From: Mustelus asterias
Lineage: Eukaryota
Reading direction: 5' to 3'
Length of the DNA stretch: 64,000 nt
Assembly (NCBI RefSeq): GCF_964213995.1
Contig: NW_027590140.1
Span: forward strand, 1,054,001 to 1,118,000
The notes under the pieces: model-generated
Told to the model about the DNA's origin: nothing
The model's database searches: none
What the model saw: the letters and a program-made list of their open reading frames with translations, nothing else
Part shown: in pieces, positions 3,914-35,458 of the stretch
Numbering within the stretch: position 1 is the first letter of the stretch
How the letters are laid out: the number at the start of each line of letters is the position of its first letter
Position numbers and translations under genes: made by a program

Positions 3914-4212
3914 ATTCCAGCTGATCCGTGTAACCCAGTTCAATTCTCCAATCCTCTGCCGCAGGTGACAAGGTTACCTTAAGCTGTGAATATTCAGGGA
4001 ACTGTCAGCATTCTGGTACTGTCAGTCCCCAGGACAGGCTCTGAAATACTTGCTTCGGACACACACTTCGGGAGAGGGGAAGAAAAAAAATGCTGCCGGG
4101 TACAGAATTTCTGTTTATACCCATTCTTCAGTCAAAATCTGCAAGTTCGAAATCTCCAAACGACAACTGAGCGACTCTGCTGTGTATTACTGTGAACTGA
4201 GTGGACGTACGG
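3914..4212 (+). pseudogene. TCR delta V pseudogene resembling the NAR-TCR supporting V-delta (no leader, extra CDR1 Cys)
   Basis: cctgcAG acceptor. Reads FQLIRVTQFNSPIL/AAGDKVTLSCEYSGNCQH/WYCQSPGQALKYLL...ISKRQLSDSAVYYCELSGRT with two frameshifts. No hydrophobic leader exon is evident upstream. Confidence 0.8.
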
Positions 4213-4395
4213 CACAGTGACACAAAACACGGAGTGAGCTGTACAAAAACCTGGACATGGTGAGGATTACTGCCACAGTGATACAGAACACGGAGAGAGC
4301 TGTACAAACATCTGAACATGGTGCGGATTACAGACACAATGATACAGAACACGGAGAGAGCTGTACAAAAACCTGCTCATGGTGAGGATTACAGA
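4213..4395 (+). repeat. Three tandem 61-bp units, each a 23-RSS plus 22 nt
   Basis: CACAGTG(4213)-23-ACAAAAACC; CACAGTG(4274)-23-ACAAACATC; CACAATG(4335)-23-ACAAAAACC. Confidence 0.95.
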
Positions 4396-5300
4396 TGATG
4401 TGGAGATGCCGGTTTTGGACTGGGGTAAACACAGTAAAACGTCTCACAACACCAGGTTAAAGTCCAACAGATGTATTTGGTAGCACAAGCCACTAGCTTT
4501 CGGAGCGCTGTTCCTTCATCAGGTGAGTGGGATTTCAGTTCACAAACAGGGCATATAAGGACACAAATTCAATTTACAAAATAATGGTTGGAATGCGAGT
4601 CTTTACAGGTAATCAAGTCTTAAAGGTACAGACAATGTGACTGGAGAGAGGGTTAAGTACAGGTTAAATAGATGTGTATTGTCTCCAGCCAGGACAGCCA
4701 GTGAGATTTTGAAAGCCCAGGCAAGTCGTGGGGGTTACAGATGGCGTGACATGAACCCAAGATCCCGGTTGAGGCCGTCCTCATGTGTGCAGAACTTGGC
4801 TATCAGTCTCTGCTCAGCGACTCTGCGTTGTCGTGTGTCGTGAAGGCCTCCTTGGAGAACGCTTACCGGAAGATCAGAGGCTGAATACCCGTGACCGCTG
4901 AAGTGTTTCCCTACAGGAAGAGAACACTCTTGCCTGGTGATTGTCGAGCGGTGTTCATTCATGCGTTGTCGAAGCGTCTGCAAGGTCTCCGCAATATACC
5001 ATGCCTTGGGACATCCTTTCCTGCAGCGTATAAGATAGACAACGTTGGCCGATTTGCAAGTGTATGGACCGTGTACCTGGTGGATGGTGTTCTCACGTGA
5101 GATGATGGCATCTGTGTCGATGATCCGGCATGTCTTGCAGAGGTTGCTGTGGCAGGGTTGTGTGGTGTCGTGGTCACTGTTCTCCTGAAGGCTGGGTAGT
5201 TTGCTGTGGACAATGGTCTGTTTGAGGGCCTGGGCTTGCAAAATCTCGCTAACTGTCCTGGCTGGAGACAGTACACATCTCTTCAGCCTGTGCTTAACAC
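4396..5300 (-). mobile_element. Penelope-like retroelement, 5'-truncated (GIY-YIG endonuclease region + pLTR, inverted 5' segment)
   Basis: ORF 4735-5460 contains CKTC..., NVVYLIRCRKGCPKAWYIAET, LRQRMNEHR and GLNRDLGF. Segment 5227-5298 is an inverted copy of ~4650-4720. ACAGAT occurs on both sides. Confidence 0.9.
4491..4527 (-). ncRNA. Minimal hammerhead ribozyme-like core in Penelope pLTR
   Basis: Reverse complement CTCAC-CTGATGA-AGGAACAGCGCTCC-GAAA-GCTAGTG gives CUGAUGA...GAAA with a short stem II. Confidence 0.6.
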
Positions 5301-6568: not shown

Positions 6569-6641
6569 GGGCTAGTAGTACAATGGATAACGCGTCTGAT
6601 TACGGGTCAGATGATTCCAGACTCTGTTCCTGGCTGGCTCG
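6569..6641 (+). tRNA. tRNA-Arg(ACG) pseudogene
   Basis: GGGCTAGTAGTACAATGGATAACGCGTCTGATTACGGGTCAG...CCTGGCTGGCTCG follows vertebrate tRNA-Arg-ACG; the T-loop/B-box is mutated. Confidence 0.8.
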
Positions 6642-31718: not shown

Positions 31719-32248
31719 ATGATTTTGGTCATGCTGACGGCGCTCTTGCACAGTAAGCACTGGATAATGTTCATCAAACCGGATAAACATATTGATGGCA
31801 ACTTAATTAACAATCTAAAATATCCACGTGATGCGCAGAATGGAGGTTCCACAAACTATTGCAGATACAAACACATTTACGTTAACGCTTGATATTTCAT
31901 TCTTCTGCCTTTACAGACGGACTGTGCGTAGATCCAGTAACTCAGTCACCGGTGACAATCACCGCATCAGAAAGGGGCTTTGGTGCAGTTACATTGTAAT
32001 TATACAGACAAGGATATGCACAGCATGCAATGGTATCAGCAGAAACCGGCGCAACCACCGACATGAATTATTTAGAAAATATTAACAATGAAGGAAGATA
32101 AATTTCAGGACGATATCTGGCGATAGCTAGCAAGTCTAATCAGAACGGTTACCTTAATATCAGCCCCTTCAGTGTGGAGGACGTGTCTGTCTATTACTGT
32201 GCAATTAGGCACAACGTTAGATTACAGTTAAAACTCCGTAGAAAAACC
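31719..32248 (+). pseudogene. TCR alpha-type V pseudogene with leader (31719-31752), V exon (31917-32209) and 23-RSS (32210-32248)
   Basis: MILVMLTALLH A|GTAAG; tacAG|..DPVTQSP...LHCNYT...MQWYQQKP...EDVSVYYCAIR with frameshifts and stops; CACAACG-23-AGAAAAACC. Confidence 0.9.
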
Positions 32249-32429
32249 TCAGCCATTTTTTACAACTCCACCAAGTTTGCTTCTGCGCGGATGGTTTGTC
32301 CCCGGGTTCACGAAGGCAGTCAGATCTATTTATCGGGCATTTTGTCCTGATTGAGATCGGCAAAGAAGCAGTTTGGGAAATCGAGACGCTAATCCCCATA
32401 CCGCGATTTATATAGTGAGCACGAACCAG

Positions 32430-34097: not shown

Positions 34098-35458
34098 GGT
34101 TTTTGTACAGTGACTGCCGTCTTTACTGTCAGTGTGGGCTCTATCGCACAGTAATACAAAGCGGTATCCGCGCTTTCCATGTTTTCAATAATCAACTGGC
34201 CCCATTTGTCCGCAGTCGAAAGTTCGAATTTCAGTCTGTCCGTTCTCTAGATACATATACAACAGTACAGCACAGTACAGGCCCTTCGGCCCTCGATGTT
34301 GTGCCGAGCTTTGTCCGAAACCAAGATCAAGCTATCCCACTCCCTATCATTCTGGTGTGCTCCATGTGTCTATCCAATAACGGCTTGAAAGTTCCGAAAG
34401 TGCCCGACTCCACTATCACAGCAGGCAGTCCATTCCACTCCCCAACCACGCTCTGAGTAAAGAACCTACCTCGGACATCCCTCCTATATCTTGTACCATG
34501 AACCTTATAGTAATGCCCCCTAGTTACAGCTACATCCACCCGAGGAAATAGTCTCTGAACGCCCACTCTATCTATCCCCCTCATCATCTTATAAACCTCT
34601 ATTAAGTCGCCTCTCATCCTCCTCCGTTCTTAAGAGAAAAGCCCTAGCTCCCTCAACCTTTCCTCATAAGACCTACCCTCCAAACCAGTCAGCATCCTGG
34701 TAAATCTCCCCTGCACTCTCTACAATGCTTCCACATCCTTCTTATAGTGAGGTGACCAGAACTGCACACAATATTCCAAATGTGGTCTCACCAAGGTCCT
34801 GTACAGTTGCAGCATAACCCCACGGCTCTTAAACTCAAACCCCCTGTTAATAAACGCTAACGCACTGTAGGTCTTCTTCACGGCTCTATCCACTTGAGTG
34901 GCAAACTTCAGAGATCTGTGGATATGAACTCCACGATCTCTCTGTTCCTCCACATTCCTCAGAACCCTGCGGTTGACCCTGTAATCCGCATTCAAATTTG
35001 TCCTACCAAAATTAATCACATCGCACTTATCAGGGTTAAACTCCATCTGTCATTTTTCGGCCCAGCTCTGCATCCTATCAATGTCTCTTTGCAGCCTACA
35101 ACAGCCCTCAACCTCATCCACTACTCCACCAATCTTGGTGTCATCAGCAAATTTACTGACCCACCCTCTCTTTGCCATCCAAGAATCTGCGTATTATCCT
35201 GACCAGGTTTTTGTCTGTACCAATACATTCCCTCAAAGCTGGACATGTCATAGCTGCAGTTTATCTGTACCGAATCCCGGCTTTGGACTGTTCTCGCTGT
35301 GGGAGTTTGTGAAACTTGGTCCGAGGGACATCGATCTATAAATAAAAAACATTCAGTCAATGAGGCACTTGTATTTAAATAGCAGTCTCTACAGGTTATA
35401 GAGTGAATTTCCTCCACTTACAAATTAGTAGAACCATAATGAAATGGAACAGATTCAT
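34098..35458 (-). pseudogene. TCR V gene disrupted by a CR1 insertion: leader 35458-35422, V 5' part 35335-~35165, V 3' part ~34248-34137, 23-RSS 34136-34098
   Basis: MNLFHFIMVLLI T|GTAAGT; DQVSQTP...INCSYDMSSFEGMYWYRQKPGQ; LIIENMESADTALYYCAIE; CACACTG-23-ACAAAAACC. Confidence 0.92.
34250..35165 (-). mobile_element. CR1 LINE 3' fragment inside the V exon
   Basis: KFADDT...LVRPHLEYCVQFWSP...MRGDLIEVYKM; same subfamily as 5873-6522. Confidence 0.92.

Follow-up and report, generated by a model that had tools for sequence, protein, structure and literature searches.

Tandem recombination signal sequences behind a pseudogenised NAR-TCR supporting V-delta segment of Mustelus asterias, an apparently old layout variant of its gene family

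In the window, that is, the whole 64-kb stretch of Mustelus asterias DNA analyzed here, positions 4213-4395 form a tandem repeat with a period of 61 and 3.0 copies (87% matches, no indels; Tandem Repeats Finder), which directly follows a V exon at 3914..4212 (+). Unit 1 (4213..4273, +) is a canonical 23-RSS consisting of the heptamer CACAGTG, 23 nt and the nonamer ACAAAAACC, followed by a 22-nt linker; unit 2 (4274..4334, +) has the consensus heptamer CACAGTG, 23 nt, the variant nonamer ACAAACATC and a 22-nt linker; and unit 3 (4335..4395, +) combines the heptamer CACAATG with 23 nt, the consensus nonamer ACAAAAACC and again 22 nt of linker. Each unit thus shows the 23-RSS pattern of a CAC heptamer, a 23-nt spacer and an A-rich nonamer, and both repeat finding and motif reading confirm the original prediction of three individual 61-bp units after YYCELSGRT, including the assignment of the variant nonamer to unit 2 and the variant heptamer to unit 3. 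Matches to the consensus 23-RSS with at most two mismatches number five in the 64-kb window, vs. 0.07 expected by chance, and three of the five are the array units. In pairwise comparison, the units are identical at 52-55 of 61 positions (differences at 6-9 of 61). The copy number of three rests on two assembled contigs, as contig C71 carries a near-identical twin of the locus (3248 of 3251 positions equal).

The V exon was identified as a leaderless NAR-TCR supporting V-delta by alignment to its paralogues and by family identity. It aligns with the intact paralogue P0001, which shares 95-98% identity with the second V of two-V shark receptor models; the nearest named proteins to P0001 are labeled Mustelus asterias, and those of other sharks share 66-84%. 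A pyrimidine tract and AG precede position 3914, as a splice acceptor at the entry of the V exon. The CDR1 cysteine codon is retained at 4003-4005 (SCEYSGNC in the window V; C..SG.CQ across the paralogues), and, in excerpts of PMC1845163, a missing leader together with a CDR1 cysteine marks the NAR-TCR-associated V-delta. The gene is disabled by stops at 3922 and 3931 and by a 7-nt deletion after 4005 relative to the paralogues, in agreement with the earlier view of a dead supporting V. Its 3′ end reads YYCELSGRTAQ*, with an in-frame TGA at 4218-4220 that overlaps the first heptamer. Because the stop sits in the first heptamer, a joint at RSS2 or beyond would be non-productive in the Mustelus asterias genome, as had been predicted for RSS2 and RSS3 at this locus.

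Intact paralogues, such as those at L031, L033, and L036, are preceded by a NAR V-D-J. Their cassettes run in the order leader, NAR V (with a 22-nt-spacer RSS), 12-D-12, 23-RSS J, and supporting V with its stack; no leader was found between NAR J and supporting V in intact cassettes, and a contig from run X20 has NAR J directly joined to the supporting V exon. No NAR V-D-J was found in the 14 kb upstream of the window V, 10 kb of which lie beyond the window, or elsewhere in the window. On sequence grounds, the window V belongs to the NAR-TCR supporting V-delta family, but as an orphaned pseudogene and not as a working member. Mapping of two clusters was extended downstream, where a further V, a single D-delta and J-delta segments follow; in one of the two, five J-delta and C-delta were reached. 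TCR-delta apparently occupies several clusters rather than one translocon (C71:12.22-12.27 Mb, C71:7.08-7.12 Mb, and C96); every cluster has a NAR cassette to itself, a single D-delta and J-delta segments, and the C-delta genes differ where they were reached. In five cassettes (L042, L044, L045, L050, L053), a 12-RSS directly follows the NAR V with no separate D, which looks like a germline-fused NAR V-D. The window also contains an apparently intact TCR alpha/delta V with a leader and one RSS (1700-2184, −; FR3 NAAVYYC, not D-x-A), a V pseudogene with a single RSS that is split by an insertion of ~0.9 kb (34098-35330, −), and a further V pseudogene with a single RSS (about 32000-32250, +).

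At the end of unit 3, a fragment of a high-copy mobile element begins, on the minus strand (4396..5228, the far boundary being approximate). It is tentatively taken as Penelope-like, with a weak GIY-YIG match (E 0.058; 14.1 bits vs. a Pfam cut-off of 22.6). The repeat search gave 4525 candidates, and 38 of the 40 scored lie elsewhere, with 93-95% identity. No family was matched on the longer reading frame of the element, and no reverse transcriptase was seen in the fragment. The proposed Penelope insertion exactly at the end of unit 3 stands in that a high-copy repeat starts there, but its name is tentative. Since the arrays of the closest paralogues end at the same point, the element probably did not shorten the window array, as judged from the alignment.

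Stacked signals are widely present in the supporting-V family. A protein search of the assembly returned at least 69 family-level matches, with 150 of 1665 candidates scored; 63 copies (57 unrearranged and six joined) were scored for their arrays, and six were left out, namely four 5′ fragments, one 6-unit copy and one split array. Two to nine units follow 51 of the 57 unrearranged copies: one unit is present in 6, two in 15, three in 16, four in 4, five in 12, six in 2, and nine in 2. Intact genes carry such tails as well, since all 34 open-frame copies are stacked, with 2-6 units each, bearing out the idea that multi-RSS paralogues might exist. All six single-unit copies are broken genes, and three of these come from a subfamily in which an insertion has divided the array; where such split-array copies were fetched far enough, another five units lie 2.4 kb on. 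Many contigs are near-duplicates, and the 63 copies collapse to 16 clusters at 95%; stacks occur in 13 of the 16, and in all eight clusters with intact copies, whereas the 20 control V genes taken from the same region all lack a stack. The arrays at L040:555-857 and L047:8631-9180, with 6 and 9 units, are long and irregular, their units being spaced 59-83 bp apart.

The repeat unit starts exactly at the heptamer and comprises the RSS and 22 nt of 3′ flank; in many arrays the last RSS, too, is followed by a complete linker, which indicates that the linker is 3′ flank. This was also the ground for rejecting a derivation of the linker from the V 3′ end, to which it has weak similarity (p = 0.03). 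A splice donor in the linker (ATG|GTGAG) was rejected as well, as its GT is no better conserved than the neighboring positions.

Arrays of this kind were also detected in other sharks. Raw WGS reads of run X21, searched with the V and one unit, return the 61-bp period in 64 reads, and the unit is covered at 3.9 times the depth of the V, a ratio inflated by missed divergent V reads. Run X21 contains no read that is 99% alike; it is therefore not the same sequence, and its reads come from another shark. Contigs of X1 show the 61-bp step back as well, and those of X12 show the linker ahead of a heptamer. Among predicted proteins that read through the RSS, second units were found in Rhincodon (P0045) and Hemiscyllium (P0034) (0 of 1000 shuffles), as well as in P0056 (p = 0.005); one ENA predicted protein reads through five units, and the second unit of Pristiophorus is suggestive. 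Overall, 21 protein tails were scored (that of P0048 was scored apart from these), with a clear second-unit signal in four (P0034, P0043, P0045, P0056), a weak one in P0038 (p = 0.013) and P0050 (p = 0.033), and none in the remaining tails, several of which are too short or spliced away; the tails of Callorhinchus, Cetorhinus, Carcharodon, and Heterodontus are uninformative for this reason. A search with the translated P0043 array matched P0043 alone. The linker is partly kept in Hemiscyllium (minimum of 2-5 differences in 21 nt, vs. 11.7 for unrelated sequence). The presence of the stack in reads and predicted proteins of other sharks indicates that it is older than the carpet shark split, ~200 million years ago. 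In the carpet shark proteins P0027, P0029, P0034, and P0045, the V frame is open through 2-3 units, and an RSS2 joint in these could yield a productive, long CDR3.

Joined supporting-V copies in the assembly, which may be germline or somatic, use RSS1 in all six cases, representing four distinct junctions. In C122, an inversion between the NAR D 3′ 12-RSS and RSS1 (L035:848-877 and 6629-6630) left a precise signal joint, behind which all four units are retained; the cassette is scrambled, the D is trimmed by 1 nt, and the contig is >99% identical to its unrearranged twin. C850 and C401 contain V-D joints at RSS1, and the V of C401 is a pseudogene from a subfamily in which the first heptamer is mostly a variant and the later ones are canonical. 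C96, C119, and C436 (L032, L052, and L051, respectively) have one common V-D-delta junction, their clusters differ elsewhere and their NAR V-D-J is unrearranged; this junction is probably inherited and germline-joined. V-D joints accompanied by a still unrearranged NAR V-D-J were found at L032, L037, L051, and L052. In the X20 contig, possibly derived from RNA, NAR J is spliced to a supporting V that is joined to D at RSS1, and a search for the signal-joint pattern gave one match, also at RSS1. The assembly has 17 D-delta segments, 12 in germline form and five joined to a V end, and none is joined to a linker; likewise, none of the 57 arrays ends in a D or J joint. No joint at RSS2 or beyond was found in the paralogues and no joint at the window locus, in a sample of few joints. 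Four runs searched with D-delta/J1 gave 11, 14, 1, and 20 records with no linker-D joint, a depth too shallow to count. Three joints are free of selection, and the use of RSS1 in all of them has, as a rough estimate, p ~0.03 under equal use. In addition, D-delta 12-RSS signal joints with an ordinary V RSS and a NAR V RSS were observed at L107:5403-5404 (C71) and L135 (C110), relative to which the paralogous clusters L134, L136, and L137 keep a germline D.

First and later units differ in their conservation, although the paralogues are related rather than independent and all p values are accordingly optimistic. In intact genes, all 12 distinct first units retain the CAC and the nonamer AAA, as against 22 of 35 later units (Fisher p = 0.02); the latter fraction resembles that of later units in broken genes (15 of 28; p = 0.6). 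In later units, nonamers diverge more than spacers do (cluster bootstrap CI 0.004-0.105), the heptamers of intact genes show slightly lower divergence than the spacers (CI −0.073 to −0.004), and a permutation test found no excess conservation of the RSS motif over the spacer in later units (p 0.67-0.86). Given the decay of CAC and nonamer, later copies do not appear to be under selection as cut sites. A purely neutral reading is countered by the low divergence of the unit as a whole, which is 2-3 times below that of intron or synonymous sites. Between subfamilies, spacer and linker diverge by 0.10-0.14, intron by 0.36 and four-fold sites by 0.30; in a control family with the same degree of V divergence, the values are 0.30-0.35 for the spacer and 0.40-0.48 for the flank. 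Units are no more alike within arrays (difference 0.176) than between arrays (0.151), so local homogenization alone is insufficient to explain the low divergence of the unit; low spacer and linker divergence could come from conversion across the family or, alternatively, from selection acting on the unit. In spite of high turnover, none of the 34 intact copies has collapsed to one unit, which is not significant with just 8 independent clusters.

The best reading of these results is an old, homogenized RSS minisatellite in which RSS1 works, and on balance we hold it somewhat probable that the window contains a dead, orphaned supporting V-delta with an inherited 61-bp RSS stack, of which RSS1 is cut in every joint seen and the later units are likely passengers. 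One ancient duplication would have preceded the split of houndshark-like and carpet sharks, and subsequent slippage or unequal exchange would account for unit turnover, as close paralogues vary from 2 to 9 units. Conversion may then homogenize the ~190 units and spread the selected RSS1 sequence, so that the unit as a whole would look young even as individual later copies decay. The evidence thus leans to passenger status of the extra signals; counting against it are the low spacer and linker divergence, the absence of single-unit intact copies, the slightly better kept later heptamers, the partly kept Hemiscyllium linker and the small number of selection-free joints. It is worth noting that tail-to-tail pairs of supporting-V genes occur at L008, L011, L015, L016, L020, L026, L028, and L061, in which two arrays fuse at their linker ends, with 22+2+22 nt between the nonamers or a shortened form of this. 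All these pairs share one ancestral junction, possibly made by RAG. As the unit starts exactly at the heptamer, and as tail-to-tail arrays fuse no more than 2 nt from the expected start of the next heptamers, the stack might be a relic of RAG cutting in the germline, and a RAG-made origin in germ cells is possible (compare PMC2193156).

A different explanation would make the stack a selected RAG-loading platform, in which the extra RSS concentrate RAG and cutting is steered to RSS1, as might suit a supporting V that lacks its own promoter and has ordinary V-delta genes as competitors. The restriction of the stack to supporting V, its presence across shark orders, the lack of single-unit intact copies, the reduced divergence of the whole unit relative to neutral sites, and the V-D joints formed beside an unrearranged NAR V-D-J are all in line with this. 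However, the nonamer is the main RAG1 binding site (PMC9723617) and is the least conserved part of later units. Moreover, no mechanism was found that would block cutting at canonical later RSS: their flanks end in GA and not in the T described as inhibitory in coding flanks (excerpts of PMC7337519), and an inhibitory flank was rejected as the cause of the RSS1 preference. We therefore regard loading as plausible but unlikely, in both its steering and its competition aspects.

Use of the later units themselves, as decoys or in serial re-rearrangement, was part of the original prediction, but it finds little agreement with the joints or with the pseudogene-like decay of later units. Here, a distal RSS would be cut first, the resulting dead joint would use up a D or delay the locus, and RSS1 would then be joined to a downstream J or D. 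Candidate substrates exist: of the 79 later units in intact genes, 54 still appear usable and 16 match the canonical form throughout, with CACAGTGAT and CACAATGAT in the top quartile of a mammalian 12-RSS assay (Table 1 of PMC9723617). A second cut at RSS1 would also erase the first joint, but no trace of a first joint was found among the 57 array ends and 17 D-delta segments, in what is a small joint sample. Both mapped clusters have one D, so the RSS1 V-D joints imply direct use in which later RSS were skipped, and a dead first joint adds no further chance of a productive one; both the sequential cutting and the delaying role thus appear doubtful to us. The other proposal, slippage expansion in a dead gene, holds as far as a dead gene is concerned, with no NAR V-D-J in the 14 kb upstream of it, but not as a private event, as stacks are family-wide and found across species. 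At the family level, recent private slippage or an assembly artefact is refuted, and at the window locus, where the units differ at 6-9 of 61 positions and two contigs agree, it is highly improbable.

To our knowledge, one RSS per V is a near-universal rule, and here a whole old gene class departs from it. The arrays constitute a natural test of RAG choice between identical signals spaced at 61 bp. A linear scan starting at D would be expected to meet the last RSS copy first, and the joints seen use the first RSS, contrary to that expectation. Under selection, the stack would represent a new cis-element that orders the two NAR-TCR rearrangements; without it, the arrays show that strong RSS can accumulate unused in a rearranging locus. 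In the literature searched, which lies outside Criscitiello 2006, Deiss 2019, and Ott 2021, primary NAR-TCR locus papers that may mention the arrays, no paper on tandem RSS behind V segments or NAR-TCR was found, and one supplement of the elephant shark genome (PMC3964593) gave no match. The stacked RSS is thus apparently a real, old and undescribed variant of RSS layout, with the window copy as a dead example.

Compared with the NAR-TCR supporting V (Criscitiello 2006; features as in excerpts of PMC1845163), the genes described here have the same leaderless exon and CDR1 cysteine, and intact paralogues likewise sit 1.7-5 kb behind NAR V-D-J and upstream of D-delta, J-delta, and C-delta; by contrast, those excerpts mention no tandem RSS, and the window copy is a pseudogene without NAR V-D-J. 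The single 23-RSS of ordinary TCR alpha/delta and IgH V genes has the same heptamer, 23-nt spacer and nonamer, and RSS1 of the stack forms precise signal and coding joints as such an RSS does, whereas the stack consists of 2-9 head-to-tail copies that the control V genes lack. In VH replacement and in delta-Rec/Kde-type rearrangement, signals lie inside the V or stand alone, and a second RSS could allow later rearrangement. The stack resembles these in having a second RSS near the V, but its extra signals lie 3′ of the working RSS, and, unlike in those systems, none was seen in use among the joints in the assembly. Finally, as in the germline-joined shark Ig genes (PMC2193156), RAG-type joints are seemingly fixed in the paralogous clusters C96, C119, and C436; the Ig case concerns joined exons, whereas the stack is made of repeated signals.
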